A stretch of 64,000 nucleotides of DNA, from the NCBI GenBank assembly GCA_051294905.1, contig CM119371.1, forward strand, positions 62,001 through 126,000. The letters are read 5' to 3'. A program made the translations under genes and the position numbers. Positions 35,175 through 58,897 of this stretch are shown piece by piece. The DNA comes from Botryllus schlosseri (lineage: Eukaryota). Under the pieces are notes generated by a model that saw nothing but the letters and a program-made list of their open reading frames with translations, ran no database searches and was not told the origin of the DNA. The stretch's first letter is position 1. Every line of letters begins with the position of its first letter.

Positions 35175-35450
35175 GGCTATCGGGTTCTTATGGGCGGGGT
35201 GGCACGGTGCCGAGAAACCGGGGGTGGCACGGTGACCCTTATCTCTTATGGCGGGGGTGGCACGGTGCCATTGTGTCTTATGGCGGGGGTCGCATGGTTA
35301 CCTTTTCGGGTATACGCGCGGCGGCACGGTGCCGTGAAAACTCGTGGTGGTATGGTTACCTTTTCAGGTATAGGCGCGGTGACATGGTGACCTTTCAGGA
35401 GAGATGATTTGACTAACGTTGTGGGTATAGGCGCGGCGGCACGGTGTTGA
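35175..35450. repeat. GC-rich subterminal tandem repeats (~30 bp) of the outer element
   Basis: Repeated TTATGGCGGGGGTGGCACGGTG-like units just inside the terminus. Confidence 0.75.
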
Positions 35451-35946
35451 ATATGTATCAAGTAAATAGTCATGTGATTGGTCCTTAGGTAATGTGTATA
35501 TTCCAAATTACGGCGAGTACGACAATGATATATCGTTATTCTTATGGACGCGGCGATGATTCGTACTTTCGAGTATCTCTCGCATGGTGTTGAATATGTA
35601 CGAGTCACCAACAATAACCACGCGGACGGAAACGTGGCTTGTTGCGAGGATTAAGCAGTGCGACCTATATTTCGAATGACCTGTGCGGTGAATTGTTTCC
35701 CATGCAGCTGTGTGCTACTATCGCTTATTACACTATTCCATTCAGTGCGAAATAGTTTGATCGTAAATTATGATATATGATGTCGTAGTTTAGTCGTGTC
35801 AAATGACCGATCGTGTTCTCTTTCCTCGCTATTGATTGCTACCTGAATAATACTTTCGGCTTATTCGCTGTTTCACACCTACAGAATAGTCCACTGTTCA
35901 CAGTTGCAACAAGAATCACAAGTATACACATTTACACATTCGTTTA

Positions 35947-36317
35947 TTACTCTGAAATCAAACTCTTCACAAAAGCACGTACAATCGTATCATTCACTTT
36001 TTGATCATCGCCAAAATTATCCAAGTATTCCTCGGCTGAAAACCCTTGAGCTCTTTTTATCAAGAATGCAATAGCATGATCTCCACACACATCCGAAGTT
36101 TTACTCTGTAACTGTTTCCCAGTCACAGAAAATTCATCCGGCTCCAGGAATTCGATTATCTGAGGTTTTAGTGGTCCGAAGCCTAGTGAATCATGAAAAT
36201 GAGTATCGCCATCTCTGTATATACACACACCCAGCGAGACCCAGGCAAACTCGACTCGTCGTAATTAATGATGATAGCGAATTTTCCGTTAGTTGGTTTC
36301 TTCGGTATCTGGTCTAG
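35947..36317 (-). pseudogene. Adenain-type (Polinton/adintovirus) cysteine protease, 5'-truncated and frameshifted
   Basis: LDQIPKKPTNGKFAIIINYDESSLPGSRW / VCIYRDGDTHFHDSLGFGP...QLQSKTSDVCGDHAIAFL. Matches the N.D....G.HW...DS.G...Q.....CG pattern. The catalytic His position reads CGC (Arg) and there is a 2-nt frameshift in the GT run at ~36223-36230. Confidence 0.82.
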
Positions 36318-37788
36318 ATTTAATAATTAACGAATAACAGAACCGTCGCAGACGGTGATTCGAATACCGACAAATTCTCACTTATTTCTGATCCAACCCT
36401 AATCCTTTGCGAAGTGGATGCTTATTCAAAAACGTGTGAAATAATTGTAAAACCCTACGGTCGCTGACAGGATAATGCATCAGACATAGCGATCTAGTTA
36501 TAGTACGGTGTCGGAATCCATTCGCGAGATGTTCTAGAGGTAAATTGAGATAATCCGAAACCGAATATTTTGACTTTGGCGTAGTGTGAATTGAAATAGG
36601 ATTGACAAACATGACTACCAACTTTCCCACAGGCCCGTTTCGATATTATACACACATTGATTTGAAACAAGTAATGTAACATTGCAACTCTATTCACGGC
36701 CCCGCTTTCCGTTTGTCAAAGAGATATTTTAACATCTTACCATACTGAAAAGAATTATTCACAACAATAACAATTGTTAAAAATCTAGTTTTCACTTACT
36801 TGATTATATCACTACAACTCATAAATTTGAATTAATTCATCCTGGTTGTATTCGTATGATCGGTCTTTCTTTTTTTCATTCGATTGTAAAGCTCGTTACT
36901 ATTCTGAAGACAAAGTATTTACTAATCGGTGCATACACGATTCGACTTGAACATATTATATTTTGAGTATACGAGATTTGAATGTCTGAACAATAACTGA
37001 GAAATAATTTATCACAATTAAATCCGTAAAAGATATTTGAATGTCAGCAACTCGGTAAGGTCGTAGTTACTACCACATTACCTAATTTACCCGACCAACT
37101 CGTCATGATCATTCCCGAAATCAACACAAACATGACTACTGACTTGAGTCAACCACAAAACAGCATCAAGTTTTAAATCCGCTTGTAGCTTACGGCTTAT
37201 TTGAATGCGGGTTATGTTTTGTTGTAATTGAGTGTACGGAAATAGTATTACGCCTCGACATCTCACCATCTTGCCATCAACAAAAGAGTAAAATACACAA
37301 ACCTTGTCAAGTCAATCCGTTTGTAACTCACCGAACCAAAGCAAAAAGTGTCCATACGAAAAGTAGACAAGACTACGCAAGTAATCACTACAACCCACAA
37401 ACATATCAAGTTCGGTTTTAGCCATATACCACCAACTCGTCTTTTTTGTTCAACTGTAAAAGTCGTTACTATTTTTCAAGACAAAGTAATTACTACTCGA
37501 TAGATTTTGTAAGACAAAAGTAATTACTACTCGATGCAGACGCCTTGAGATTAACCTAACATGTTTGAGTATACAAGATTTGAAAGTCTGGCCATCGTAG
37601 TTGAGAATTCATTTCTTACAATCGAACGTAGGTGTTATATCGAAAATTACCAGGATTGTCACATCGATTTGACATATGGGGTTTTGTAATGGTCTATCAT
37701 GACTTGATTACTAATTTATTTGTGTTAATTAGACTCACCGATGTGGTGAAGGTTATTACGACAGCAACAAACTTTTCACTATCATGGC

Positions 37789-38467
37789 TATTAACATATT
37801 GAGTTGTAAAACTATACGTGTCTGAAATGTTCTTGATTGACAAATCATTCCACCTTGGTACAAATCACTCTGGGTATCGCGGATATCAGAAAATACTTTA
37901 CAAATGTAATCGTTTAAGTTACCAAGACATTAACATTATTATTAACATATTGAGTTGTAAAACTATACGTGTCTGAAGGGGAAGCGAGTGGCGCAGTTGG
38001 TTAAACACTGCGGTCACGACACCAATGGACGTGGGTTCGAATCACGGTTCTGACCCACTTCTACGTGTCGGAGGTTTCTCTGGGCTCCTCATCGCCGACC
38101 TCACTGCAACTGCAGTGCATTGAAAAGCCCAGACTGAAAGTGAGCCGTGCTACAAGTCGGCAGCAACGACCGCGATGGGAACGCTTGGGAGCGAGAGAGA
38201 ATGAAGAATGACTGCGAGAGAGATTGAAAGACGTTCCCAAGAATACTAAAAGCAAAGACCTCTGAACATTATGAAATTCGTGTCGTGGAGCACAAGGCCT
38301 AACCGGCGATAAGCTCCAACTGTGTTGTACCCATTAATACATACATACATACATACGTGTCTGAAATGTTCTTGATTGACAAATCATTCCACCTTGGTAC
38401 AAATCACTCTGGGTATCGCGGATATCAGAAAATACTTTACAAATGTAATCGTTTAAGTTACCAAGAC
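37789..38467 (+). repeat. ~140-bp tandem duplication, second copy interrupted by a SINE
   Basis: TATTAACATATTGAGTTGTAAAACTATACGTGTCTGAA...GTTACCAAGAC occurs at 37789-37928 and again at 37940-38467. Confidence 0.8.
37978..38352 (+). mobile_element. Full-length tRNA-derived SINE
   Basis: A box TGGCGCAGTTGG, B box GGTTCGAATCAC, (CATA)n tail, 13-bp TSD ATACGTGTCTGAA. Confidence 0.9.
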
Positions 38468-39516
38468 TAAAGATGAAACAACAATTCCGTTTGCTGGCTA
38501 ACAACCGGGTAATACTTTATTGTCAGAATCTGTGACGGTGAATTGAAACATACTCATCTTACGCAGTACGAGTAAATCACTTTGGACTCCGGGCGGCGTC
38601 GTTTAATCCGTGTTAAACTCTGTTCACACTCTCTGTCGAATGTGTGAAATGTAAAACATTACGAGGTTACACTCTAAGACTTTGATCAACAGAGAAACAA
38701 TTTTGAATATCTTTACTGGATGGATCCTATTCAACCGACCTTGGTTAATACAAAACTCATAACAATAATAAAATCGAAGTATGTGCTACACTGAAATCTA
38801 GAAAAATGTGTTTGTATTGTTGTTCATAGTAGTGATATCGATTTGAACCTGCGGAATAATTGTCATCATCTAACCAAACTAATGAAAGTCGTTGTCACAT
38901 TGTATGATGTTCACTGAATGCATACTAGTACTATTTGTGCAACACACACGAGCAGAGAAATTGGAAATTTTCCCATTGCCATTTGTCAAAGTAAATGTCG
39001 TCACAATACTCAGTCACTAAAAGACCATATACTTGTATGTGATTGAATCACCAACAATTAACTCGCTAAATCAAATCGTAAGGCAATTTCACGCACTCAG
39101 CGGATATTATACAACGTCGCTTTATCGGTGTGGGTCGTTTTTTCTAAATACAAATCATATCTGTCCAGTAGAAAACAATTTTCACTCACTTGGGTAACGA
39201 AACCAGTGTGCAATATCAACACAAGATATTTTCGTGACACAAAAAATAATCAACTTTACTCAATATTCTCGTAAAACGAAACTGTACAATGGTTTCATAT
39301 TTTTTGTATGACATGGAATTAATACCGATCGAAGTAGCCGCATTGGAAATGATTTTTAAACAAACACACTCTACGTGGTTAACATTCTCATCGATTCTAT
39401 TGTGACCAATGTATACTTCATGTGCTCTGGATTCATTTCGATATGGTTAAGCATTCAGCCTCGACAGTAGTTAAGTAGATCGGTCACGATTCGTACATTT
39501 TTGCATGGGGTAGTAT

Positions 39517-39760
39517 AGGCGGGGTCGCATGCTAACGCGAAAACCGGGGTGGCATGCTAACGTTTTCGTCTTATGGTGGGGTGGCATGCTAACGTTTTCG
39601 TCTTACGGCGGGGGTGGCATGCTAACGTTTTCGTCTTATGGCGGGGGTGACATGCTAACGTTTCGTCTTATGGGTGCGGTCGCATGATAACGCGAAACTC
39701 GTGGTGGCATGCTAATGTTTTTAGGTATACGTGCGGCGACATGCTAACGACGATAAATGT
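39517..39760. repeat. GC-rich subterminal tandem repeats (~32-33 bp), inner element left end
   Basis: GCATGCTAACGTTTTCGTCTTATGGCGGGGGTG units; mirrored at ~55270-55512. Confidence 0.85.
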
Positions 39761-40248
39761 GTCTGTCGTGTATTCTTACGGGATCTGTGGTGATTCACCA
39801 TGTGTTCTTATGGGTGCGGTCGTGATTCGCACTTTCAGACATCTCTCGCGTGGTGTTGAATATGTACGAGTCACCAACAATAACCGCGCAAACGGAAACG
39901 TGGTTTGTTGTGAGGATTACGCGTGCGACCTATATTTCGAATGACCTGTGCGCTGAATTATTTCTCGTCCAGCCGCTACTATCGATTATTACACTATGTC
40001 ATTCAGTGCGAAATAGTTTGCTAAATCTAGGAATCAGTCGCATGGTGTTACTTTAGTAATTAGTTTACCACAGAGCCGGCGTAGCCGGTGATTCGAATAC
40101 CGACAAATTTTCACTTATTTCTGACCCAACCCTAATCCTCTGTGAAGTCGACGCTTATTCAAAAAGGTGTGAAATAATTGTAAAATCCTAATCCGAAACC
40201 GCTTATTTCGACTTTGGCGCAGTGCGCATTGAAATAGGATTGACAAAC

Positions 40249-40560
40249 ATGACTACCAACTTCCCCACAGTCCCGTTTCGATATTATACACACATTGATT
40301 TGAAACAAGTAATGAAACATTACAACTCTATTCACGGTCTGGCTTTTCGTTTGTCAAAGAGATATTTTTACATCTTACCATACTCAAAAGAATTATTCAC
40401 AACATTACCAATTGTTAAAAATCTAGTATTCAATTACTTGATTATATCACTGCAACTCATGAATTTTAAATTAATTCATCCTGGTTGTATTCGTGAAAAC
40501 CAAAAATTTGTCACTAGCCCGCGATCGCTATATGTTTCACACCTCGCGAAAAGTGGCTGA
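40249..40560 (+). CDS. Hypothetical element ORF (103 aa, MTTNFPTVPFRYY...); mirror copy on the minus strand at 54468-54779
   Basis: Open in very AT-rich DNA, with CAAACATG start context; the outer-element homolog (36611-36850) shows synonymous changes plus stops. Confidence 0.4.
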   Translation: MTTNFPTVPFRYYTHIDLKQVMKHYNSIHGLAFRLSKRYFYILPYSKELFTTLPIVKNLVFNYLIISLQLMNFKLIHPGCIRENQKFVTSPRSLYVSHLAKSG

Positions 40561-43500
40561 CTTTAGTTGCGTGATAAGATCCATGAAAATATTCAATCGA
40601 TGTGTTAGTTTGTCAACTTGAAATGTAACTCACTACACAAATCAAGTTGAATCGTATTTGAATGTATTGATTCGACCCAACTCAAATCCTTTGACAAATC
40701 CTATTAACGCGATCTGTCGAATCGAGCGTAACCCGAATATTACTGACGCCGACTTTCAGCCACATTGAATTATTCGCACACCCACGCCGCTGTTTTCACA
40801 ACTATAACTCTACAAGAATCAAGAATCACAAGTACGTGCATTACACAGTTATTGTCTTCATCAACTTGAAATCAAACCCTTAACAAAAACACGCATCTTA
40901 TCACTTGTCAACTCTATCATGAAAATCCTCGAACCCGTATTATTAAGAATGTTATAGTACGGTATCGGAATCCATTCGCGAGAAAGGTGAATCCAAATAA
41001 TCCAGAATGAAATATTTGGACTTGACATAGTGTGAATAGAAATAGGTTTGACAAACATGACTACCAACTTTGATCCAGTCACATTTCAAGATTACACTTT
41101 GAAACAATCCTTGAAACTTACAACTGTATTCACGACTGAGTTTTCCATTTGTCAAATAGAGTTTCAGTAAATACTATCGCGATATTTTAATGTGTTACTA
41201 CACACAATAGAATCAATCAATGAAATAACACCTGTTGTAAATATTTCTAACTTGACAAACACTTGTACATACCGCGATCGACTTGTGACGCGATGAGTTA
41301 AATCGGAATATTTCAATCTATTTGTCGAAACCTTGAACAAACTATCGGGTTATTTTTTGTTGCAATCGAGTGAACGGAAATAGTATTACGTCTCAACATT
41401 TCAACATCTTCCCATACACAAAAGAGTAAAATACAAAAAAACCTTGTCAAGTCAATCCGTTTGTAACTTACCCAACCAAAACAAAAAGTATCCTTACGAA
41501 AAGTAGACAAGACTACGCAAGTAATCACTACAACCAACAAACATATCAAGTTCTGTTTTAGGCATATACCACCAACTCGTCTTATTGGAATGTCAGCAAC
41601 TCTTTACGGTCGTAGTTACAACCACGTAAACTAATTTACCCTACCCACACGTCATGATCATCCCTGAAATCAACACAAACTCGACTACTGACTTGAGTTA
41701 ACCACAAAAACGGCATCAAGTTTTTTAATCCACTTATAGCTGACAGATTATTCGAATACATCGATGGAGAATATTATTGAACTCGTCGGTATTGTTACTT
41801 CAACAAATTACACCGACTGCGAAAGTTAATATCGAATGGTAAGACTTGATCACATATTTGTTGAACACAGAAATGACAAAGAACATGATCGGAATTTTAT
41901 AAACTAGTCATATTACTTTTCACATCTATCAATATCAGAATACAAGTCATCAAACTTTTTGTTAAATGTAACATAGCACTTTTGGAATCGGATTCGTTAT
42001 AGTCGTACAAATTGTATTAAACACAACATCAAAACAAAAGGACTTTTTTAGTTTATTGAAATCAAATCATTCGTCTTCGACTTGTGCTTTTTTAGATTGC
42101 CAGCGACAATTCGTTTCGAGTGAGTTGTAACCAAAGTCAAGATATCTTTGTGTCCACAGATATGGAAGATGAATATAGCTAACACAATCACGAATCGACG
42201 TTTCAGATTATTTCACGGATGTAATAAACTTGTTAGTGTCACCTATCTAAAAGTACGCACGCGCTCGATTTCCATGCCGACTGTTGCGATGTTTAGGATT
42301 CACTTACAATAACCACGGATGAGGATTTAACATCAACGTCGTTACTGGTAGTATTCACAACAGAGAATCCAAACATTACACAGTGTGAAAATATATCTTT
42401 GATATCAAAGCATTATCCCAAGTATACGATTAATAGTCAACTCCGTTCACACTTTCTATAGAACGTGCTAAATGTAAAATATCACGAGGTTGCACTCTAA
42501 GACTTTGATCATTACAAAAAGTAAATTGGAATATGTTTGCTGGATGCATTCAATTCAGCTAGAAATGTCTAGTGCACAACAATCGTAATATCAAGGAAGT
42601 ACTTGCTATCACTAAACGTGTTTTGTATCGTTGTTCATTTGTAGTATTGATTGAAATTGTTTTTGAACACTCAAATAATAATTCCCGACATGAAACCAAG
42701 CCGCTGAAAGTCGTTACCATAACAAAGAAACAATTTGTACGATGTTTGGCAAATGTACCCTATAGTTAGGTGTACTAGAATTATTTGTGTAACACATACA
42801 CCGACAATGCAATCGAAATTTTTTCCGTTGTCATTCGCTAAAGTAAATGTCATCACAATACTCTGTCACTAAAAGACGTTACTCGGGCGTGCTTGAATTC
42901 TAGGCATAGTTCTGATTTACCCAACACAAGACCCAAGGACAACCCTAGTTTCAGTCGAACACAGATATCCAAAATATCGCACACTCCGCTATTCCTAAAG
43001 TACAAACACCCGATACAAAATATTACTTGTTGTGTTGTTGCGGTATCATCTTCACAATATCACCATTTTGTTTGTGTCAATTAGTTACTTTGTATGTTAC
43101 CCCACAACTCTTATAAAAGTACGAAGGATATTAACATCGCACTAAGTAATTAACTTTACTCGATATTCTCGCATTACGAAACTAAAGAATGGTTGGTTAG
43201 ACTCTACAAACTGTTTCGATATCACGAGACCTTTATTGTATCTTAATAATCAAATAGTTCAACACAGAACTAGTACTAACAGAAACACCAGAGTTGTTTA
43301 CACAAAAGTTTGTATATGTGCACAGTATGCGAATACCATGTGTAAGTCCAGCACAATTGCGGTATCCATCCGAGTTTAGTTAACACAAATTTATTACAAC
43401 GGAGTCACGTAAACTTTCGTGAAAGGAAAGCATACTCACTCCCAGAGGGTTATGTCAATGCCATAGCAGTTCCCCAACAACAAAGTACATATGTTTTCTA

Positions 43501-44404
43501 GTCACGGTCCTTACATCTTTCACATAGATCAATCTACTTTGCTAACGAAAAGTGCTAAGTCATCACATGATCGCTCTCACAACAAAACAGCTAGTAGATA
43601 TTATCATTCAAAATATTCCTAACCCTTTACATACCAGTAACAAATCATACAACGAATATGTTTTGTGGGTCGAATTGTTGTTCAGTGTCAAGTCTACCTG
43701 TTGAAACGTACATTAAAACAACACAGTCACAATCAAATTAAAACCACGAATCTATTTTCATTTCCTCGCAAACTGTCACATACAGAAAAATAAATTTAAT
43801 TTCCCAAAACATACTTGTAACCAATCGCTTTCATTAAACACACAACACCATAATAGTATTTACTTTCTACAACATAGACATTCCGGTGTAGTCAAGAAAT
43901 ATTTTTAATAATCAAAATCATCGACTTCTGTTTACGGTGTTAGTGTGTGCATGTCATACATGTGGGCCCGTATTAAAATGGACACGACAGGACTGACTGT
44001 AAGGAGATAGAAGTCTATCGCATAGATTTACATGTGGTCTTCGCTACGGTTTCAAAAAACGAATCATCTCTTTTGCATTGATCTAGACCGAGCAAGTTAG
44101 TTAATGACCATGATTGTGTTTGTCATATGCGAATGATAGGGTTACTGTCAAATCTACATACAACAATCTTCTGACGATCATAATAGCAATTTCATTTTCC
44201 GCCCCTTCATAATTGTACAACTCGGTAACTACGTTTAACAAGACCAATCACACTACCAGCGTTGAACACAAGATACCTACCCAAGTAAAAATATCATTCT
44301 GGTTTGGACAACTGACGTTTACCTGTGTAAAATTATCATTTTCACTTGGAGGTCCACCGTCACCTAACTAAAATACCATTGTCCTTTGGAGATTTATCGT
44401 TTAC

Positions 44405-44885
44405 CCAGTGTAACAATCCCCTTTTCACTTGGAAATATATTTTTGCCCTGGATAACAAACCCCTTTTCCCTTGGAAATCTATTTTTGTCCTGGATAACAA
44501 ACCTTTTTCACTTGGAAATATATTTTTTCTCTTGGTAACAAACCTTTTTCACTTGGAAATCTATTTTTGTCCTGGATAACAAACCTTTTTCACTTGGAAA
44601 TATATTTTTTCTCTTGGTAACAAACCTTTTTCACTTGGAAATATATTTTTTCTCTTGGTAACAAACCTTTTTCACTTGGAAATATATTTTTTTCTTGGTA
44701 ACAAACCTTTTTCACTTGGAAATATATTTTTTCTCTGGGTAACAAACCTTTTTCACTTGGAAATATATTTTTTCTCTGGGTAGCAAACCTTTTTCACTTG
44801 GAAATATATTTTTTCTCTGGGTAACAAACCTTTTTCACTTGGAAATATATTTTTTCCCTGAGCAACAAACCATTTTCACTTGGCG
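44405..44885. repeat. ~41-bp minisatellite in the inner left arm
   Basis: AACAAACCTTTTTCACTTGGAAATATATTTTTTCTCTTGGT units; the mirror array at ~47595-47950 has ~3 fewer units (122-bp offset). Confidence 0.9.
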
Positions 44886-46323
44886 GGTCGTCGTTTACCT
44901 TAGTAAAAATATCATTTTCCTTTGGAGATCCGGCGTTTACCTAGTGTAACAATAAATTTTCTCTTGGTCATCTAGCTTTTCCTAGAGTAACAAAACCATT
45001 TTCATTTTGAAATCTGACAAACACACCTAACAATTTGGTATTTGTTGTATTGACGATACTTTGAAATAGATTACAACGAACAGTGACGGAAATATACACG
45101 GACTTCCGGTTTCAGAGTATACCCTCATCAGTCGTATCACATCAATATCATTGGTTAACCACATACAATATGCTCTTGTACACCGAAATGCATGTTTTGG
45201 AAAATTGGACAATAGGCTTCGATAGTCCTGTGATGTCCGGGTTCGTGCTTTGGATTTTCCAGAGTCAAAATGTCTGAATAAAACACCTCCTCGACGATGG
45301 TTGGTATGTGGATAACGGTGTTCGGAAAACGGTTGGATTTATGTCACCCATCGCGATAACAATTCCAGGTCGAGTTTTCCCCCACGCATGTTTACTATAT
45401 TGTGTCTTTATTGGTCAATGTATGTCTCGACATTCAGTTTGAAATCGGAAACCCTGATAAAGTATGTAACCGGATCCGGATATCAATTCTGAATCGATAA
45501 ACCAATGAACGATATTCAAAGTAAACATGTTACATCCTGTGTTTCCACGAAAAAATACCATCCAGACATACGTCGCGCTTGTTTACCCACAACAGTATAC
45601 GCGTAAATGGAGGTGTGTGACATTGCATGCAATGTGTTGGTATACAAACATCGGGCAGTAAGCCTTCGATCCACAGACATTATCATAGCCGGTAGTTTTG
45701 ATGTAGATCGAATGTCATCACACCCGATAACAATGTCATACCAATAAACCACATTACAATGACTCTGAGTCAATCTGAAGCAGAACATACAGACACCGTT
45801 CACTGATTTACTCGATGGTTTTATCGCGTTGTAACATTACAAGATAGTCATGACCCTATCTCCGGACAGACGTCCCAGATCAATTGGATACATGGGTCAA
45901 TATCCATCGTGTTGTCGAGACCGAAGTTTTCTGCTGAGACTGCAGCGTTTCACCAATGTGAACTATCGAAGTACGGTGCTCGAAATGATTGTGATCAGTC
46001 TTTCAGTCACGATGCAAGGATGTCGCTACTCCCACATAACGACTCCAGATAAATATCGTGAACAGTGATTCTGAAAATCTCGGACTGATACTGTGATCCA
46101 ATAAGGTATGTTTCTGTGGAATGAAGACTGCAATCGTACACCACAATAGAACACTACCTCGCTATTTCACACGCAATCATAAAACACATCATCGTAAGGG
46201 TCCAGTTCGTCCGGCAACATTTCGAAACGGTCATCGCCACAAGAGATCGGGTTGGTCTCGTCGTATCGGTAGCATTTTGAAACTGTCATCACCACAAGGC
46301 TATTGACGTCGTTTCGGTTGGTC

Positions 46324-46599
46324 ATGTCAATCCGTTTTACAATTTACCGTTTTTCAACTCCTCGCACCATACTGTTACGACACAGACAAGAAGCGTCGGT
46401 GGAAATGATAAAACACGGAAGGCACACTTTGGTGTTATTTGATATGGATTTTACACCAGACGAACCTCACATTCGAGCGATGCATTTGAATGGTGATTGT
46501 ATTATTGATGTCCAAGGAAAAGAAATGTATCGATTTATCGGTTTCGTACATATCCAACAAAAACCTGGGTATATGATTGTGCACGGTTCGCATATTTGA
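46324..46599 (+). CDS. Hypothetical 91-aa protein in the central spacer
   Basis: MSIRFTIYRFSTPRTILLRHRQEASVEMIKHGRH...VQGKEMYRFIGFVHIQQKPGYMIVHGSHI; the last 29 codons differ from the outer copy (60277-60366) only by 4 synonymous changes. Confidence 0.55.
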   Translation: MSIRFTIYRFSTPRTILLRHRQEASVEMIKHGRHTLVLFDMDFTPDEPHIRAMHLNGDCIIDVQGKEMYRFIGFVHIQQKPGYMIVHGSHI

Positions 46600-47594
46600 C
46601 TGTGATCACAATATTGGTATGTACTGTACAGTTCACTTTCACCGTTGTGCGAATAACCCATGTTACGGTTCCATGTTTGTGTGTCTGTATGTCCAGCTTC
46701 AGATTGACTCAGAGTCATTGTAATGTGGTTTATTGGTATGACATTGTTATCGGGTGTGATGACATTCGATCTACATCAAAACTACCAGCTATGATAATGG
46801 CTGTGGATCGAAGGCTTACTGCCCGATGTTTGTATACCAACACATTGCATGCAATGTCACACACCTCCATTTACGCGTATACTGTTGTGGGTAAACAAGC
46901 GCGACGTATGTCTGGATGGTATTTTTTCGTGGAAACACAGGATGTAACATGTTTACTTTGAATATCGTTCATTGGTTTATCGATTCAGAATTGATATCCG
47001 GATCCGGTTACATACTTTATCAGGGTTTCCGATTTCAAACTGAATGTCGAGACATACATTGACCAATAAAGACACAATATAGTAAACATGCGTGGGGGAA
47101 AACTCGACCTGGAATTGTTATCGCGATGGGTGACATAAATCCAACCGTTTTCCGAACACCGTTATCCACATACCAACCATCGTCGAGGAGGTGTTTTATT
47201 CAGACATTTTGACTCTGGAAAATCCAAAGCACGAACCCGGACATCACAGGACTATCGAAGCCTATTGTCCAATTTTCCAAAACATGCATTTCGGTGTACA
47301 AGAGCATATTGTATGTGGTTAACCAATGATATTGATGTGATACGACTGATGAGGGTATACTCTGAAACCGGAAGTCCGTGTATATTTCCGTCACTGTTCG
47401 TTGTAATCTATTTCAAAGTATCGTCAATACAACAAATACCAAATTGTTAGGTGTGTTTGTCAGATTTCAAAATGAAAATGGTTTTGTTACTCTAGGAAAA
47501 GCTAGATGACCAAGAGAAAATTTATTGTTACACTAGGTAAACGCCGGATCTCCAAAGGAAAATGATATTTTTACTAAGGTAAACGACGACCCGC

Positions 47595-47950
47595 CAAGTG
47601 AAAATGGTTTGTTGCTCAGGGAAAAAATATATTTCCAAGTGAAAAAGGTTTGTTACCCAGAGAAAAAATATATTTCCAAGTGAAAAAGGTTTGCTACCCA
47701 GAGAAAAAATATATTTCCAAGTGAAAAAGGTTTGTTACCAAGAGAAAAAATATATTTCCAAGTGAAAAAGGTTTGTTATCCAGGACAAAAATAGATTTCC
47801 AAGTGAAAAAGGTTTGTTACCAAGAGAAAAAATATATTTCCAAGTGAAAAAGGTTTGTTATCCAGGACAAAAATAGATTTCCAAGGGAAAAGGGGTTTGT
47901 TATCCAGGGCAAAAATATATTTCCAAGTGAAAAGGGGATTGTTACACTGG
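47595..47950. repeat. ~41-bp minisatellite in the inner right arm
   Basis: Reverse complement of the 44405-44885 array. Confidence 0.88.
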
Positions 47951-50004
47951 GTAAACGATAAATCTCCAAAGGACAATGGTATTTTAGTTAGGTGACAGTG
48001 GACCTCCAAGTGAAAATGATAATTTTACACAGGTAAACGTCAGTTGTCCAAACCAGAATGATATTTTTACTTGGGTAGGTATCTTGTGTTCAACGCTGGT
48101 AGTGTGATTGGTCTTGTTAAACGTAGTTACCGAGTTGTACAATTATGAAGGGGCGGAAAATGAAATTGCTATTATGATCGTCAGAAGATTGTTGTATGTA
48201 GATTTGACAGTAACCCTATCATTCGCATATGACAAACACAATCATGGTCATTAACTAACTTGCTCGGTCTAGATCAATGCAAAAGAGATGATTCGTTTTT
48301 TGAAACCGTAGCGAAGACCACATGTAAATCTATGCGATAGACTTCTATCTCCTTACAGTCAGTCCTGTCGTGTCCATTTTAATACGGGCCCACATGTATG
48401 ACATGCACACACTAACACCGTAAACAGAAGTCGATGATTTTGATTATTAAAAATATTTCTTGACTACACCGGAATGTCTATGTTGTAGAAAGTAAATACT
48501 ATTATGGTGTTGTGTGTTTAATGAAAGCGATTGGTTACAAGTATGTTTTGGGAAATTAAATTTATTTTTCTGTATGTGACAGTTTGCGAGGAAATGAAAA
48601 TAGATTCGTGGTTTTAATTTGATTGTGACTGTGTTGTTTTAATGTACGTTTCAACAGGTAGACTTGACACTGAACAACAATTCGACCCACAAAACATATT
48701 CGTTGTATGATTTGTTACTGGTGTGTAAAGGGTTAGGAATATTTTGAATGATAATATCTACTAGCTGTTTTGTTGTGAGAGCGATCATGTGATGACTCAG
48801 CACTTTTCGTTAGCAAAGTAGATTGATCAATGTGAAAGATGTAAGGACCGTGACTAGAAAACATATGTACTTTGTTGTTGGGGAACTGCTATGGCATTGA
48901 CATAACCCTCTGGGAGTGAGTATGCTTTCCTTTCACGAAAGTTTACGTGACTCCGTTGTAATAAATTTGTGTTAACTAAACTCGGATGGATACCGCAATT
49001 GTGCTGGACTTACACATGGTATTCGCATACTGTGCACATATACAAACTTTTGTGTAAACAACTCTGGTGTTTCTGTTAGTACTAGTTCTGTGTTGAACTA
49101 TTTGATTATTAAGATACAATAAAGGTCTCGTGATATCGAAACAGTTTGTAGAGTCTAACCAACCATTCTTTAGTTTCGTAATGCGAGAATATCGAGTAAA
49201 GTTAATTACTTAGTGCGATGTTAATATCCTTCGTACTTTTATAAGAGTTGTGGGGTAACATACAAAGTAACTAATTGACACAAACAAAATGGTGATATTG
49301 TGAAGATGATACCGCAACAACACAACAAGTAATATTTTGTATCGGGTGTTTGTACTTTAGGAATAGCGGAGTGTGCGATATTTTGGATATCTGTGTTCGA
49401 CTGAAACTAGGGTTGTCCTTGGGTCTTGTGTTGGGTAAATCAGAACTATGCCTAGAATTCAAGCACGCCCGAGTAACGTCTTTTAGTGACAGAGTATTGT
49501 GATGACATTTACTTTAGCGAATGACAACGGAAAAAATTTCGATTGCATTGTCGGTGTATGTGTTACACAAATAATTCTAGTACACCTAACTATAGGGTAC
49601 ATTTGCCAAACATCGTACAAATTGTTTCTTTGTTATGGTAACGACTTTCAGCGGCTTGGTTTCATGTCGGGAATTATTATTTGAGTGTTCAAAAACAATT
49701 TCAATCAATACTACAAATGAACAACGATACAAAACACGTTTAGTGATAGCAAGTACTTCCTTGATATTACGATTGTTGTGCACTAGACATTTCTAGCTGA
49801 ATTGAATGCATCCAGCAAACATATTCCAATTTACTTTTTGTAATGATCAAAGTCTTAGAGTGCAACCTCGTGATATTTTACATTTAGCACGTTCTATAGA
49901 AAGTGTGAACGGAGTTGACTATTAATCGTATACTTGGGATAATGCTTTGATATCAAAGATATATTTTCACACTGTGTAATGTTTGGATTCTCTGTTGTGA
50001 ATAC

Positions 50005-52669
50005 CAAAGTCACTCAACTATGACAAGTCGTCCGAACGTATTTTCATGGAGCGAGAAATGTTGCACAACTTGATGTTACGTAGTATGGCGCCTTACGGCG
50101 AACGTCGTTGTAGGTTGGATTATTTGGAGTTCGCGGCGCAAATATGGCTGGATGTGCTGTGAAAGGTCAAGAAAATGACGCATAAAGGAAGGGTAGCTCA
50201 AGAAGGAAGCAAAATAGTGTCTGACAGAGATTGTCCTGTTCTATTTCGCTTCCCAAGAAATCCAATCCTCAACGTCGTCACTTCAGAAGAAGTGGGATCA
50301 AAGGTACAGTACCGTAGTATTAGTAGTAAGTCTACTGTAGTACATGTAGTGTTCGTAAAAGTCAAATATAGAGACCTTTAGCTTTCACATACGGTACACA
50401 ATGAAATGTGGACTGTTAATTTCTCAAAACTAATATGGTGTGAAGTTAACTTGATACAGTCCATTGTTGTTATGAGTGTATACCAATTGAGTAATAAAAA
50501 TACTGAAATACAAATTTGATGTGTCTCAGGTGACCATCAGCATTGATCATTGCCTAGTGATATGACACGTTCATGGTTCATCCTCAGTGTCTTTATATTA
50601 TCCTAATCATGGGTTATATTTTATGCAGCATATGATTTCACTGGAAGAATTCCACCAATAGAGAGAAGACTTTGTAGTCTTGAAATTATTTTTCGCTTGC
50701 TAACAAACCGGTCAAGGTGGTACATGTTGTTTCGGATGAGTCTTCGTGCGGATGTGGAAAGCGGCTGGCTGGTAAGATTCAATTGTATACTGCTGAAGAG
50801 TACCATTGCTTAGCATTGTATAATACCGTTTGCAGATAGGAATGAAATACCATCTGCTGATAATCTAAGATCAGCCCTGAGTTACCCGTCAAGCATATTC
50901 AACCATCCGTCACTAATCACGATACCATATGATTTTGCGAGAACAGCTGCACACTGGAAACCTTATCCCTCGGTTATGGAACAGTGTCGGGGGTTCTCAC
51001 AAACCCTGAATTTCTTAAAGTGGCAATATCATTTTCATCGTATTGTTGTGCTTTGTCATTATCAGTGACCTTGAGCATTTTTCAAATGATTACATCTGTC
51101 ACTAAATGAAATTTCCAATAATAGCCTACATGGAAACCAGTTGAAGCCGGCATTTGACTATCGAGCATACTTTGTAATGTAGCCATACGCAGTTGGTGTT
51201 GTCTGCAAAACGCATCCTTGATTTTCTCTGGTTTGGGCAGTCCACAAAGGGTGCACTCGCAAATTTATTTAGTTTGGTACGAGATCAATTTTAGTGTATT
51301 TATTCATTTAGTATGTTATATTTTTATTCAGGTCTGCATGCGGGAAATTATCATGCAACATCAACGGAATTCATTGCTTCTTGTGAAAATGATGACGGTA
51401 CCTCAATTCCATATTCCATGCGAACCCCAAATTGATGACTCGGAATATGAATGCATGGAATCGCTCTCAGACGTATCTTATACTATCTGGCCCTGGTGGG
51501 TTGGACATTCACCAATCGTTCATTTTTTCGTGGTGCACTGGACGATGTTCGTGCAGCCAGCCCACTATGAACCGGTCCTATACCAATACCGAGAAAACCA
51601 TTGCCGAGAATGCTATTACCGAGAATGGACATTACCGGCAGTCGTCAAGCATGTCTAAGTCTACATGCAAGCTGTTTCTACTGAATGAATACAATTCGGC
51701 CTGCAGGACTGTGATATGATATGTCGACATTTTTATTGCTAGTCCTTTTTATGTTTTCTTTTCCTGGAGTGTATATGCCTCTTATTTACATGCTCTTGGT
51801 CAAGGTGCGGGAATGATTAAAATGACCGATCCAAATCATTTAGACACCGTTCAATTGTTTTCCTTATATTGCCACCTTGAGGTGTTTTGATCTGATGGAA
51901 ATTTCAATAAATGGCTGGGACTACCTATATTTCGTGTCATCCAAATACATGGATCTATCACAGAAAGCACCCGTAAATTTGTTGTCAGATTTAGAATTGT
52001 TGAAGAGAAACGAAGAATCGTACGAGGGAGAAACCAGTATGCTTGGAAATGTGCTGCAAGGTCAGGTATAAGACGAAAAATAATGAAAAACTTATTTTTA
52101 CATCTGAGGACTTTGAGGATAAGGTTTCTACATGTTAGTTCTCATCTATTGCATAAAAGTTGCTGCAGACATGTGTTTAGAAGCGGAGGCTAGTCAGAAA
52201 TCCCGGTGTGAAGGGTGGTAGTTGTCTGCTTGCAGGTTGGTTGTCTAGTCAGTGAGTACTCCAGTTCCATTGGGCAGTGATACCAGGTCATGGAATTCGT
52301 GCGGCTATGGTGGAATGTAAAACTGGACGGTCATGACCAGCAATAATCCTGCATCCCGACTAGTAATATTTTCGGTCTACGCCAAGATTGATATTGCAGC
52401 ATATATAAGGTATATTTCGTTTGAAGGTCAACCATACAGAAATATTTCGTTTTAATATCGTTGAAATACATACTGCAATCCTTGAAATCCCACACAGCCA
52501 AATAATTCTCGAGAAATAACCGTTAAAAGTCGAAATATAAGGTCGGCAAGCACGGATTTCCATTACCGCAGGTTAGCGCCGACGGACTTTTGTGCAACAT
52601 TTTGCGCTCCAGTACTCTCATAACATTGCGCTTATTAGTCGGACGACTTGTCATAGTTGAGTGACTTTG
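50005..52669 (+). mobile_element. P-element-like TIR DNA transposon with a decayed THAP-like start
   Basis: Perfect 31-bp TIR CAAAGTCACTCAACTATGACAAGTCGTCCGA; 8-bp TSD GTGAATAC; absent from the left arm. Remnant MAGCAVKG..N / VLFRFPRNP at 50144-50300. Confidence 0.8.
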
Positions 52670-55600
52670 GTGAATACTACCAGTAACGACGTTGATGTTA
52701 AATCCTCATCCGTGGTTATTGTAAGTGAATCCTAAACATCGCAACAGTCGGTATGGAAATCGAGCGCGTGCGTACTTTTAGATAGGTGACACTAACAAGT
52801 TTATTACATCCGTGAAATAATCTGAAACGTCGATTCGTGATTGTGTTAGCTATATTCATCTTCCATATCTGTGGACACAAAGATATCTTGACTTTGGTTA
52901 CAACTCACTCGAAACGAATTGTCGCGGGCAATCTAAAAAAGCACAAGTCGAAGACGAATGATTTGATTTCAATAAACTAAAAAAGTCCTTTTGTTTTGAT
53001 GTTGTGTTTAATACAATTTGTACGACTATAACGAATCCGATTCCAAATGTGCTATGTTACATTTAACAAAAAGTTTGATGACTTGTATTCTGATATTGAT
53101 AGATGTGAAAAGTAATATGACTAGTTTATAAAATTCCGATCATGTTCTTTGTCATGTCTGTGTTCAACAAATATGTGATCAAATCTTACCATTCGATATT
53201 AACTTTCGCAGTCGGTGTAATTTGTTGAAGTAACAATACCGACGAGTTCAATAATATTCTCCATCGATGTATTCGAATAATCTGTCAGCTATAAGTGGAT
53301 TAAAAAACTTGATGCCGTTTTTGTGGTTAACTCAAGTCAGTAGTCGAGTTTGTGTTGATTTCAGGGATGATCATGACGTGTGGGTAGGGTAAATTAGTTT
53401 ATGTGGTTGTAACTACGACCGTAAAGAGTTGCTGACATTCCAATAAGACGAGTTGGTGGTATATGCCTAAAACAGAACTTGATATGTTTGTTGGTTGTAG
53501 TGATTACTTGCGTAGTCTTGTCTACTTTTCGTAAGGATACTTTTTGTTTTGGTTGGGTAAGTTACAAACGGATTGACTTGACAAGGTTTTTTTGTATTTT
53601 ACTCTTTTGTGTATGGGAAGATGTTGAAATGTTGAGACGTAATACTATTTCCGTTCACTCGATTGCAACAAAAAATAACCCGATAGTTTGTTCAAGGTTT
53701 CGACAAATAGATTGAAATATTCCGATTTAACTCATCGCGTCACAAGTCGATCGCGGTATGTACAAGTGTTTGTCAAGTTAGAAATATTTACAACAGGTGT
53801 TATTTCATTGATTGATTCTATTGTGTGTAGTAACACATTAAAATATCGCGATAGTATTTACTGAAACTCTATTTGACAAATGGAAAACTCAGTCGTGAAT
53901 ACAGTTGTAAGTTTCAAGGATTGTTTCAAAGTGTAATCTTGAAATGTGACTGGATCAAATTTGGTAGTCATGTTTGTCAAACCTATTTCTATTCACACTA
54001 TGTCAAGTCCAAATATTTCATTCTGGATTATTTGGATTCACCTTTCTCGCGAATGGATTCCGATACCGTACTATAACATTCTTAATAATACGGGTTCGAG
54101 GATTTTCATGATAGAGTTGACAAGTGATAAGATGCGTGTTTTTGTTAAGGGTTTGATTTCAAGTTGATAAAGACAATAACTGTGTAATGCACGTACTTGT
54201 GATTCTTGATTCTTGTAGAGTTATAGTTGTGAAAACAGCGGCGTGGGTGTGCGAATAATTCAATGTGGCTGAAAGTCGGCGTCAGTAATATTCGGGTTAC
54301 GCTCGATTCGACAGATCGCGTTAATAGGATTTGTCAAAGGATTTGAGTTGGGTCGAATCAATACATTCAAATACGATTCAACTTGATTTGTGTAGTGAGT
54401 TACATTTCAAGTTGACAAACTAACACATCGATTGAATATTTTCATGGATCTTATCACGCAACGAAAGTCAGCCACTTTTCGCGAGGTGTGAAACATATAG
54501 CGATCGCGGGCTAGTGACAAATTTTTGGTTTTCACGAATACAACCAGGATGAATTAATTTAAAATTCATGAGTTGCAGTGATATAATCAAGTAATTGAAT
54601 ACTAGATTTTTAACAATTGGTAATGTTGTGAATAATTCTTTTGAGTATGGTAAGATGTAAAAATATCTCTTTGACAAACGAAAAGCCAGACCGTGAATAG
54701 AGTTGTAATGTTTCATTACTTGTTTCAAATCAATGTGTGTATAATATCGAAACGGGACTGTGGGGAAGTTGGTAGTCATGTTTGTCAATCCTATTTCAAT
54801 GCGCACTACGCCAAAGTCGAAATAAGCGGTTTCGGATTAGGATTTTACAATTATTTCACACCTTTTTGAATAAGCGTCGACTTCACAGAGGATTAGGGTT
54901 GGGTCAGAAATAAGTGAAAATTTGTCGGTATTCGAATCACCGGCTACGCCGGCTCTGTGGTAAACTAATTACTAAAGTAACACCATGCGACTGATTCTTA
55001 GATTTAGCAAACTATTTCGCACTGAATGACATAGTGTAATAATCGATAGTAGCGGCTGGACGAGAAATAATTCAGCGCACAGGTCATTCGAAATATAGGT
55101 CGCACGCGTAATCCTCACAACAAACCACGTTTCCGTTTGCGCGGTTATTGTTGGTGACTCGTACATATTCAACACCACGCGAGAGATGTCTGAAAGTGCG
55201 AATCTCGACCGCACCCATAAGAACACATGGTGAATCACCACAGATCCCGTAAGAATACACGACAGACACGTTTATCGTCGTTAGCATGTCGCCGCACGTA
55301 TACCTAAAAACATTAGCATGCCACCACGAGTTTCGCGTTATCATGCGACCGCACCCATAAGACGAAACGTTAGCATGTCACCCCCGCCATAAGACGAAAA
55401 CGTTAGCATGCCACCCCCGCCGTAAGACGAAAACGTTAGCATGCCACCCCGCCATAAGACGAAAACGTTAGCATGCCACCCCCGGTTTTCGCGTTACCAT
55501 GCGACCCCGCCTATACTACCCCATGCAAAAATGTACGAATCGCGACCGATCTACTTAACTATTCTCGACAGATACGAATTGTCACACACTCAACTAATAT

Positions 55601-57039
55601 CATACCAAATAGTTATATACAACAACCAAGACACAGAAAATTTGTTTTGGCCGTTTCGATTTTACTACTGGAGGTACTCATCACTTCGCTTAATACAATC
55701 TAGATTTAAACCCCATCGAACCTTTGGTGTCTATCGTTTTGCTGGATACGAATTATGTTAGTCTAACAGTAAACAATTTTCACAATCTTGGGTTATGAAT
55801 TCAATGTGTTGGCGGTCGTTCATTATTTTGTTTGTATCAACTAGTTACTTTGTAGGGTATGAATGAGCACCCTCCCACAACTCTTACAAAAGTACGAAGG
55901 ATATTTACATCACACAAGTAGTCGACTTTACTTCATATCCTCACACTACGAAACCAAATGGTTGTTTAGACTCTACAAACTTTTTTACACGAATGGTCAC
56001 ACATCTAAATATTCAAATAATCCAACACACAACAATAATACTTACAGAAATATCATAGTTCTTGTAACAAAGGTGTTTATCGTAAGTCCTACACAGTCAT
56101 GATAACCGTCCGAGTTTGACTTTTAGAAAATATTATATCGATACATCTTTCAAAAACAAAACCGTGGTCACTGCTTGAGAGACCTGCCAATGATATCACA
56201 ATAATACAGTTACTTCCACAAAAAAAAAATATGTATTCGACTTACTTTCCACAAATCTAACACACAAAACAATTTACTTTGCTAGCGAAAAGTGCTGAGT
56301 CATCATATGATTGTCCTCACAACAATACAACTAAAACATACTATCATACAAAATGGTCGTTATAGTTTGCACCCCAACGATACATCGTAAAAGTAACAAG
56401 TTTCAAGAATCGAGTTATTGAAAAACGTGAAAGTGTTTCTCCTGTGTCAAGTCGTTATGTTGATGAAAGTGTATATTGTAATATCATGATCAATTTGCAT
56501 TCGTTGGTCACAAACTGTCACTACTCTAAATAATTATTTTTCACTCAAACACAACAGCATACTTGTCGCCATTCGTTTTCATCAAGCACGAGGTCAAGAA
56601 ACTTACTTACTACGACATGAATTGGTATTTTTATGTTGTGTAAATACGTAATAATTAATTTTAGTAACACTATATCAACATCATCGAGTTGTGCGAATAG
56701 ATTTTCATGTGGTCTTGCGGTTTTAATCGAAGCACACATCATGATCTAATGTAGAGTCGTCTCTATTGTATAGCAACTCGGTAATCGAAATGCATGCATT
56801 AACATTTAAACAGCGATCGTGTTTCGTCACGCGAAAAATATGTTCACTACCGCGATACTCTGCACAGGGCGTGCAAATCCTTTTCACACTCGTAATAGTA
56901 TACCAACGGCTACCGGCGACAACGTTTAACAATACCAACGACACTAAACATACGATACCTACCCAAGTAAAATTTCCATTTTCACCTGGAGGTCAGCCGT
57001 TACCTGACTAAAAATACCATTGTCCTTTGGAGATCTTTG

Positions 57040-57600
57040 GTTTACCTAGAGTGACAATACATTTCACTTGGCGATCTACCTTTTCCTACAGTAGCAATAA
57101 CCTTTCCGTTTGGAAATATATTTTTCCCTGAGTAGCAAACCATTTTCACTTGGCAATCTATATTTTCCCTGAGCAACAAACCATTTTCACTCGGCGATCC
57201 ATCGTTTACCTGATTAAAAATATCATTTTCCTTTGGAGATCTGACGTTTACCCAGAGTAAGAAACCATTTTCACTTGTAAATATATTTTTTCCTTGGCTA
57301 ACAAACCTTTTTTCACTTGGAAATATATTTTTTCCTTGGCTAACAAACCTTTTTCACTTGGAAATATATTTTTTCTCTGGTTAACAAACCTTTTTCACTT
57401 GGAAATATATTTTTTCTCTGGTTAACAAACCTTTTTCACTTGGAAATATATTTTTCCCTGGGTAACAAACCTTTTTTCCCTGAGCAACAAACCATTCTCA
57501 CTTGGTGGTCCGTCGTTTAGCCGAGTAAAAATATCATTTTCCTTTGGAGATCCGGCGTTTACCCAGTGTAACAAAACATTTTCACCTGGAAAAATACTTT
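57040..57600. repeat. ~41-bp minisatellite in the outer left arm
   Basis: Same unit as in the inner element; mirrored at ~61300-61860. Confidence 0.85.
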
Positions 57601-57609
57601 TACCTAGAG

Positions 57610-58897
57610 CAGTGGGTCCCAACGTGGGCGATATCGCCCCCCAGGGGGCGATTTGTCGGTCCTGGGGGGCGAAAATAGCCAAGGGGGCGATAGGGGGGCG
57701 AAAACGGACGAAGGGGGCGATTGGGGGGCGATGGCGCGTTGAAATGGCTATATTGGCGTCCATGGCCGTAACTGTCACACCCAAGCCCCCAATTGAGATG
57801 GGGGGCCCACAATTCTTTCGTGAATTAACATTAATTATAGAGTATTATTTTGGAAATTTAGGCAACTTTTTCAAAAAATTTTCGCGCTGCGCGCCATTTC
57901 GTGGACGCATATTTCTTGCCTATTGGATACCCTTCCTCCTAGAAATAATACGCATGAAGTATAGAAATGGGCATCTCGGCGTCAGCCATTATCACACCAT
58001 GACGCACCAAGACATATGAAGTTTCAGGCCATGTAACATGCGACTCCGAGAAAACCTTGGCGGAAAAAGACTGCCTTTATGCTGACCGACTTCGATATAT
58101 AGACATATATATTTAATTGTCCATAGGCGCCTAAATGGCTGGCGCCAAATGCTCCTGTTCTGTCCAATCAGAACCTCACAAATAAATGCCATACCGCAGA
58201 GAAAAATTAGTTACCAGTGCAGAAATGCCAGTTTGAAATCGAAATCGTGTGCGACTTTTAGTTTAGTACGTATGGGCGATTTGAATATCTTTTGACATAG
58301 CAGACTGGCCACGAAATGTCATGTCATATGTTCAATTATTATTTATGGGCCCTACATTTTCCAAGACACCTCACTCAGCTTTAACGGTAAATCTGAATAC
58401 ATGAGCAGAGAGAAGATAAAAAATTGACAGCAATATTTATGCAATTCCCGAGCATATTGACCGATTCAATCATGAATAATAGAAATTTTTCGCGCTTCGC
58501 GCGAATTAGGCCGACTAACTAAAGAGTCCAACAATTTGTGCTGAGAAGTAGCGGTAAAGAGGTATCGGGGGAGTTGGGTCTGCGGGGCGCAGAAGTTTGC
58601 TTTATAGCGCTATGGAGGGGGTCAAGACCAACGTATTGAGGGGGGCTGACGAAGTGCTGTTACGGTCCTTTGGGAATCAAGTCAGAGAAATCACCTTTTC
58701 TGTTAGTCAACTCACCAAAATTTAGCTGGAAAAGTGTAATTTCGAGGTCGAGCCGAAAAGTTGACCTTTTTTTCTTAGTCAACTCGCCGGTGATTTCAGT
58801 GTGTATGCCCATTTTTGTGTTCCCAATATTTGGGGGGCGATTATCGGTGTGGAGTTTGAAAAGGGGGCGATGAGTCGAAAAAGGTTGGGAACCACTG
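57610..58897 (-). mobile_element. Non-autonomous hAT (Charlie-like) element, copy 2
   Basis: TIR CAGTGGGTCCCAAC / GTTGGGAACCACTG; TSD ACCTAGAG; single-copy empty site in the right arm at ~61287; homolog of 7720-8991. Confidence 0.92.

Follow-up and report, generated by a model that had tools for sequence, protein, structure and literature searches.

How does a 16-kb stretch of an animal genome come to be almost entirely its own mirror image, and what keeps its two halves alike? The question is raised by an element at positions 39466-55563 of a 64,000-nucleotide stretch of the Botryllus schlosseri genome (assembly GCA_051294905.1, contig CM119371.1, positions 62,001 to 126,000 of the forward strand), referred to as the window and numbered from its first letter. 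Our data indicated that this foldback element is very probably one copy of a non-autonomous family derived from Polintons (Mavericks). The best overall explanation, to which we give a probability of roughly 0.8, is that the family consists of gene-less, non-autonomous Polinton derivatives built like a snap-back defective genome.

A repeat search placed the arms of the ~16-kb foldback at 39466-45796 and 46681-55563, around a spacer of 884 bp; in BLAST, the outermost block reached 39461-42358 / 55568-52670. Global alignment of the arms without the interruption of the right one gave 6184 matches and 25 mismatches in 6209 aligned bases (0.40%), with three gap events, one being a copy-number difference in a 41-bp tandem array (11.5 versus 8.5 copies, the chief length difference between the arms) and another a 5-base splice artefact. 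The inverted repeat accounts for ~94% of the uninterrupted element, at 6.3 kb per arm. The terminal 18-mer, which would be expected by chance 0.01 times in the window, reads AGTAGTTAAGTAGATCGG at the left end and AATAGTTAAGTAGATCGG at the right, with a single mismatch, and the hexamer CTCGAC stands on both sides as a target-site duplication (TSD). Six exact copies of a subterminal repeat core (CATGCTAACG) lie within the first 280 bp. The first-pass annotation had described just such a near-perfect inverted repeat, one-mismatch ends flanked by CTCGAC and a 2.67-kb insertion in the right arm, and all of this was borne out, the insertion being a 2665-bp hAT-like transposon at 50005-52669. The features of this foldback, including its terminal inverted repeats (TIRs) and any open reading frames (ORFs), are as follows.

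39460-39465, forward strand: left TSD, CTCGAC
39466-45796, forward strand: left arm, 6331 bp, with neither a conserved ORF nor a match in Pfam, Rfam or the tRNA scan
39466-39483, forward strand: terminal 18-mer AGTAGTTAAGTAGATCGG with the (AGT)2 end motif; mirror at 55546-55563 with one mismatch
39546-39692, forward strand: subterminal iterated repeats of ~32/33 bp, core CATGCTAACG; mirror at 55336-55484
39540-42363 and 52665-55488: outer arm block pair, 99% complementary
42351-44712 and 47643-50004: middle arm block pair, 99% complementary
44410-44883, forward strand: 41-bp tandem array, 11.5 copies; mirror at 47594-47945 with 8.5 copies
44687-45796 and 46681-47790: inner arm block pair, 99% complementary, its two members separated by 884 nt
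45797-46680, unstranded: spacer (axis), unique, 884 bp
46681-55563, reverse strand: right arm, interrupted by the hAT-like insertion
50005-52669, unstranded: nested hAT-like non-autonomous transposon, 2665 bp, with perfect 31-bp TIRs starting CAAAG (CAAAGTCAC...)
55564-55569, forward strand: right TSD, CTCGAC

Across the 495-Mb, 219-contig assembly that was searched, the terminal 300 bp matched at least 59 places, 40 of the 800 candidates having been scored, and these matches are arranged in plus/minus pairs 11-16 kb apart. The degenerate terminal 18-mer (AGTAGTDWRGTMGATCGS) occurred 347 times in the forward and 356 times in the reverse orientation, with 0/0 for the reversed control. Perfect 6-bp TSDs flanked 13 of the 13 elements with both ends (12 foldbacks and one autonomous element), all of them different (CTCGAC, TACGAG, AAGGAA, AACGGG, AGAGTC, CATGCG, TACAAT, AGTCAC, ACTGTA, GGCGCC, CACACA, GTCGGC and AACCTT). 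AGTAGT termini were found in all 13, the sole deviating end being the right end of the window element, AATAGT. The inverted repeat spanned all of the ~1.8 kb available in 11 of 12 terminal pairs, at 99.27-100% identity, and four of the five further copies that were read end to end proved to be foldbacks, with the following dimensions.

C1_33M: arm 6652 bp, arm identity 100%, spacer 820 bp
C10_10M: arm 6633 bp, arm identity 99.93%, spacer 856 bp
C2_20M: arm 5474 bp, arm identity 99.98%, spacer 908 bp
C5_16M: arm 4453 bp, arm identity 99.73%, spacer 2333 bp

The long spacer of C5_16M results from an internal deletion in one inner arm, and arm length ranged from 4453 to 7207 bp in the six fully read foldback copies. 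Searches with the arm interior gave 2845 first-look candidates, of which 40 were scored; 26 of the 38 long matches formed 13 convergent plus/minus pairs, and the rest of the scored matches were unpaired copies. The foldback family is abundant in this genome, with non-coding mirror arms of 4.4-7.2 kb, a unique spacer of ~0.9 kb and Polinton termini.

The source of these termini is indicated by the twelfth terminal pair, which belongs to a gene-bearing Polinton of 15.7 kb (C9:25683228-25698890, hereafter the helper) with TIRs of only 750 bp. In Pfam, its 1205-aa ORF matched DNA_pol_B_2, the protein-primed polymerase pPolB (PF03175, 33.2 bits versus a cut-off of 25.8), its integrase matched rve (PF00665, 60 bits) together with Chromo, and its ATPase ORF gave weak AAA/A32-like matches below the cut-off. 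A 432-aa ORF, which resembles double-jelly-roll capsid clusters (score 0.98, a lead only), is likely the capsid gene; a PDB sequence search with the 217-aa ORF at the left end gave noise only. At least 38 pPolB copies were found at 92-100% identity (38 of 427 candidates scored), 32 of the 38 without a stop.

An autonomous Polinton sharing the terminus had been postulated from the window alone, and the helper provides one: the terminal 400-650 bp is common to the foldbacks and the helper at 90-98% identity. The window arm matches the helper TIR at ~90% over arm positions 1-401 and 340-555, with no match beyond 555, and C10_10M matches it at 97.9% with an identical terminal 18-mer. The helper and 12 of 13 foldback ends have the CATGCTAACG cores at identical spacing; the exception is the copy that encloses the flagged element in the window. 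The window element thus combines a 6-bp TSD, (AGT)2 ends and the termini of an autonomous Polinton, as a non-autonomous member of the group should. Since it shares its termini with a gene-bearing Polinton and encodes neither pPolB nor integrase, it is a non-autonomous derivative and not a Polinton in the strict sense.

Searches for coding capacity were consistently negative. When the 33 ORFs of the helper were compared with the window element by tblastn, matches fell in the TIR region only, and none of the 25 ORFs of the arms and spacer reached a Pfam cut-off; sub-threshold matches to MRP-S34 (E = 0.045) and a RING finger (E = 0.003, 17.8 bits versus a cut-off of 27) were set aside as noise. 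Cross-copy tblastn with 31 ORFs found none conserved across five copies, and the matches that it did return were rejected because they contained stops or because overlapping frames were equally conserved. Rfam and tRNA (ARAGORN) scans gave 0 matches, and a transposase was encoded in none of the six fully read copies. Among the sequencing runs listed as containing the sequence, none was registered as RNA, and one raw RNA run gave 60 reads, every one only partly matching the element.

The reading of the locus as a mobile, non-autonomous Polinton derivative lacking recognisable Polinton genes therefore stands, supported by the termini, the TSDs and the helper. The accompanying idea that a Polinton TIR had grown to ~6.3 kb holds for the ends, but only the first ~0.55 kb of the arm is Polinton; for the remaining ~5.8 kb of each window arm, neither nucleotide nor protein comparison with the helper gave a match. 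A non-foldback progenitor of the arm interior was not found among the 40 scored of the 2845 candidates, and 0 of the 38 long arm-interior matches lay within 20 kb of the 38 scored pPolB genes. Likewise, the comparison with copy-back genomes is apt for the near full-length inverted arms and the short turn, but not for the arm itself, which is not made of helper sequence. The window element is thus not just an enlarged Polinton TIR but a family-wide snap-back of a non-coding unit with Polinton end caps.

If the foldbacks form a family, did each copy fold back on its own? The flagged element is itself nested: a second foldback of this family, running from 35149 to window-equivalent 67104, contains it in its left arm. 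Homologous inner arm and spacer were present in ten copies on nine contigs (these two, four others read end to end and four for which the midpoint was sampled), and spacer homologues were full-length in 39 of 42 scored matches at 91-100% identity, the window's own included. One axis common to ten copies indicates that the foldback was inherited and not re-formed locus by locus. In a tree of the 700 bp adjoining the spacer, both arms of each copy were sisters in 9 of 9 copies, and inner-arm identity was 99.4-100% within copies versus 90.3-99.9% (median 93.3%) between them. With a single inherited axis, arms evolving independently should be no less diverged than the lineages; they are less diverged, which means that something keeps the arms alike.

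The ends of the arms have a history of their own. Among 15 ends, helper left-end sequence reaches position ~1620 in four (~870 bp past the TIR) and helper right-end sequence reaches ~14446 in two (~460 bp past the TIR), the outer window copy being one of these two; the other nine, including the flagged element, have TIR sequence only. Left-type and right-type modules each occur in both major inner-arm clades (split support 100/99), which implies that ends were exchanged between lineages or re-acquired from helpers. In all cases, the same end module was present on both arms to the last base, and the host flanks past the TSD were unrelated. The inherited single axis, the co-evolving arms and the symmetric helper-end modules are new findings on the foldback family.

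The enclosing copy is represented in the window by its left arm, its axis and part of its right arm. It begins with the exact terminal 18-mer at 35149, its mirror lies 3104 bp beyond the window end, and TACGAG flanks both. Its arms show 22 mismatches in 6631 aligned bases (0.33%). A site at ~63327 had been taken for the empty target of the flagged element; it does read as an unoccupied target, but it lies in the opposite arm of the enclosing foldback and is not an independent locus. The rows below give the parts of this copy and the self-matches within the window.

35143-35148, forward strand: outer left TSD, TACGAG; the right TSD is at window-equivalent 67105-67110, just outside the window
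35149-39459, forward strand: outer left arm, part 1, opening with the exact AGTAGTTAAGTAGATCGG
55570-59747, forward strand: outer left arm, part 2, holding a 1288-bp insertion
57610-58897, unstranded: another nested hAT-like insertion, 1288 bp long, its ends reading CAGTGG.../...CCACTG and its 8-bp TSD ACCTAGAG
59748-60472, unstranded: outer spacer (axis), homologous to the inner spacer
60473-64000, reverse strand: outer right arm, running on to window-equivalent 67104
63327-63332, reverse strand: unoccupied target GTCGAG (reverse complement of CTCGAC) in the outer right arm
38792-39467 against the reverse complement of 64000-63325: self-match, 99.56%
55564-57609 against the reverse complement of 63332-61287: self-match, 99.56%
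58898-59747 against the reverse complement of 61294-60473: self-match, 96.6%
45071-46299 (inner arm and spacer of the flagged element) against 59076-60277: self-match, 89.7%

Several further observations concern this copy and the transposons nested in the pair. The outer arms differ by ~310 bp in length (37929-38352 versus 64325-64439), and the BLAST blocks break there. The outer end at 35149-36050 has the exact terminal 18-mer, yet no exact CATGCTAACG core in its first 900 bp, and its first 270 bp are only 73-76% similar to the helper TIR. The 2665-bp insertion in the flagged element is flanked by the 8-bp TSD GTGAATAC at 49997-50004 and 52670-52677, which occurs once in the intact arm; it had no Pfam match, and we take it to be hAT-like on the strength of its 8-bp TSD and YARNG ends. 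The 1288-bp element is present in the outer left arm only and missing from the other outer arm; relatives of it lie in the window at 7388-9259, with copies 81-88% identical at 7746-8975. The sequence AGTAGTCAAGTAGAAGGG at 26326-26343 has three mismatches to the Polinton terminal 18-mer and may be the end of another, older element. The 64-kb window is repeat-rich and gene-poor, with only two stop-to-stop ORFs of at least 180 aa (34475-35074, reverse strand; 57426-58019, forward strand) and neither an Rfam nor a tRNA match.

Elsewhere in the assembly, C1:16772825-16801530 contains two plus termini followed by two minus termini in two 18-mer variants and resembles a nested family pair. Self-nesting may be common in the foldback family; the helper integrase, for its part, bears a chromodomain. 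Two right ends 83 kb apart (C2:20716951 and C2:20633598) agree in both their terminal 18-mer and their 10-bp flank, which suggests a segmental duplication including a foldback end. A sequencing run labelled as a second organism contained one third of the words sampled from the axis region, and a near-identical foldback family may therefore exist in a related species.

What, then, keeps the arms alike? We lean slightly towards symmetrisation of the arms coupled to replication, a mechanism that would run as follows. The foldbacks would be copied in trans from the common ends by the protein-primed polymerase and terminal protein of a helper, and the displaced single strand would anneal to itself as a hairpin or panhandle. 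Extension of the 3' end on the 5' arm would copy a new or longer end across to the exact terminus, repair of stem mismatches would hold the arms identical, and the helper integrase would insert the duplex in trans, leaving a 6-bp TSD. Incomplete adenovirus genomes carry long inverted repeats and undergo panhandle end repair, which follows the same logic as the proposed hairpin fill-in, and an (AGT)2 end fits jumping-back initiation. A bolder form of this proposal, in which an endogenous Polinton virus has the foldbacks as true snap-back satellites and their second arm is re-synthesised from the first in each protein-primed round, is tentative and, in our estimate, somewhat less probable than its negation.

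The explanation that best competes with replication-coupled symmetrisation accepts the Polinton origin of the foldback but has its arms kept identical in place, by intrachromosomal gene conversion with no replication intermediate. Arm-to-arm conversion keeps large palindromes identical, as in those of the human Y chromosome, and the arm identity of 99.3-100% in every copy examined, set against the median of 93.3% between copies, is what such a process would leave. The end modules are harder to accommodate. Two-sided conversion requires homology outside the heterology, and one-ended copying would enter the flank, whereas the helper end modules (0.46-0.87 kb) are symmetric to the last base with unrelated host flanks; ordinary two-sided gene conversion thus fails where hairpin fill-in fits. 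In addition, three nested insertions (16, 2.7 and 1.3 kb) persist, each in a single arm. The most diverged arms are those of the copies with nested insertions (0.40% and 0.33%, compared with 0-0.27% in four uninterrupted copies), although the sample is small. Taken together, we regard conversion in place as an unlikely account, at about the level of one's second choice.

Some of our results weigh against the preferred reading of snap-back-like Polinton derivatives with replication-coupled arms. Arm-to-arm conversion in situ could explain the homogeneity of point substitutions. If arms were identical at insertion and decayed in a clock-like manner, the inner arms should be less diverged than those of the older outer element; they are not (0.40% versus 0.33%), although 25 and 22 mismatches are statistically indistinguishable, and a conversion equilibrium fits these similar values as well as age does. 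The ~5.8 kb of each arm that is unrelated to the helper means that the element is not a simple copy-back of a Polinton genome. The copy at C8:19.36 Mb is a mosaic, and on the side that was read it lacks symmetry close to the axis. Mobility, an extrachromosomal form and a hairpin intermediate are all things that we infer, the palindromes are known from one assembly, and only six foldbacks were read end to end, in a sampling that followed the best BLAST hits.

The mosaic copy itself (C8:19353100-19360600) has a spacer 97.6-99% identical to that of the window and arm segments that are only 86-94% identical; beside the spacer, the side read lacks ~2.3 kb of inner arm, a segment that takes in the 41-bp array. 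It was considered as a sister for dating the window copy and rejected as a mosaic.

The remaining explanations fare far worse than gene conversion. A host-retained hairpin-RNA locus, giving double-stranded RNA and small RNAs directed against Polintons, is very improbable: transcription of a 6.3-kb inverted repeat with a short loop would yield double-stranded RNA, and the ends of this one share homology with Polinton TIRs, but the family is multi-copy and mobile with TSDs, not one conserved locus, and the Polinton match covers only ~0.55 kb of each 6.3-kb arm. An assembly artefact, whether a long-read foldback chimera or a collapsed or duplicated repeat, can be put lower still. A single assembly was examined, and public contigs over the repeat are mostly below 100 bp, none crossing the axis; against this, the element, flanked by a 6-bp TSD, lies within a contig of 41.8 Mb, a private transposon bounded by an 8-bp TSD occupies one of the arms, 25 scattered differences and an unequal number of tandem repeats set the arms apart, and the same architecture recurs at at least ten other loci on nine contigs with different TSDs, arm lengths and sequences. 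An unrelated foldback family of the Drosophila Foldback (FB) or Galileo type with merely Polinton-like ends, which the long arms with internal tandem arrays might suggest, is scarcely credible given the 90-98% nucleotide identity over 400-1600 bp to the ends of gene-bearing Polintons of the same genome, TSDs of 6 bp (9 bp in FB and 7 bp in Galileo, both with arms of ~1 kb) and the lack of a transposase in six fully read copies.

Comparison with known systems places the foldbacks between several of them. The resemblance to Drosophila Foldback and Galileo lies in long, internally repetitive inverted arms and many copies without transposase (PMC3573991); they belong to another superfamily, with a P-like transposase for Galileo, and are not known to be linked to a protein-primed polymerase, whereas 13 of 13 elements here have 6-bp TSDs and their ends are homologous to Polinton. 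For Mavericks, PMC8097293 lists the (AGT)2...(ACT)2 end motif and a 6-bp TSD as hallmarks and gives vertebrate TIRs of 46-1447 bp (mean 402). Nematode Polinton TIRs are put at 100-1500 bp in bioRxiv 10.1101/2023.08.22.554363. As a ceiling, the earlier statement that Polinton TIRs are normally well under ~1.5 kb is slightly out of date, since butterfly Polintons have gene-containing TIRs of ~2 kb (bioRxiv 10.1101/2025.02.07.637071). At 6331 bp, the window arm lies outside this whole described range. By definition, Polintons encode a protein-primed PolB and a retroviral-type integrase (PMC5499653), both of which the helper possesses and the window element lacks.

With autonomous Polintons, the window foldback has in common the (AGT)2 ends, the perfect 6-bp TSD, TIRs and an overall size of 13-16 kb; it differs in lacking pPolB, integrase, ATPase, protease and a capsid gene and in being ~94% inverted repeat. 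The butterfly elements resemble it in an inverted repeat that extends far past a few hundred bp and duplicates internal sequence symmetrically. Their ~2-kb TIRs, however, contain genes for hexon and adenain and lie on either side of a complete coding core, whereas the foldback arms of 4.4-7.2 kb are non-coding and leave only a unique centre of ~0.9 kb.

Snap-back and copy-back defective viral genomes, as defined in PMC13506859, offer the closest parallel in architecture. Like them, the foldbacks are near full-length palindromes made from one replicon end, non-coding and with the replication ends kept, and they presumably depend on a helper; the window element has inverted ends and a short turn (6.3-kb arms, 884-bp spacer), and lineages carry the left or the right helper end. 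Defective genomes are transient infection products of wholly parental sequence, whereas the foldbacks are integrated, heritable and split into lineages, with only the terminal 0.5-1.6 kb derived from the helper. By this analogy, the window element would work like a snap-back defective genome, though not one of helper sequence. The linear chromosomes and plasmids of Streptomyces, capped by terminal proteins and bearing giant TIRs (invertrons), likewise have protein-primed ends and TIRs that are expanded or replaced by arm-to-arm copying, but they are free, gene-carrying bacterial replicons and not integrated with TSDs. Our literature search, which did not extend to Repbase and Dfam, found no foldback, palindromic or non-autonomous Polinton.

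To our knowledge, Polinton replication has never been observed directly, and the protein-primed, adenovirus-like model rests on gene content alone. Arms of 6 kb that co-evolve, ends swapped with a helper and symmetry to the last base together constitute evidence, at the sequence level, for a self-annealing replication intermediate, and the foldback family provides, in simple and cis-only form, a substrate with which to ask which end repeats and helper proteins are required. In a genome of animal size, tens to perhaps hundreds of loci can apparently retain near-perfect palindromes of 13-16 kb; this has implications for genome stability and for the pipelines used in assembly and annotation, in which TIR length is usually capped. 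Should the foldbacks prove to be true satellites of an endogenous Polinton virus, they would have repeatedly re-captured the left or right end of an evolving helper and risen to a copy number comparable, in order of magnitude, with that of the helper. They would then be the first natural read-out of Polinton replication and a germ-line-fixed DNA analogue of defective interfering genomes. More broadly, the family indicates that virus-like transposons can spawn heritable, diversifying parasites of the 'defective genome' kind.

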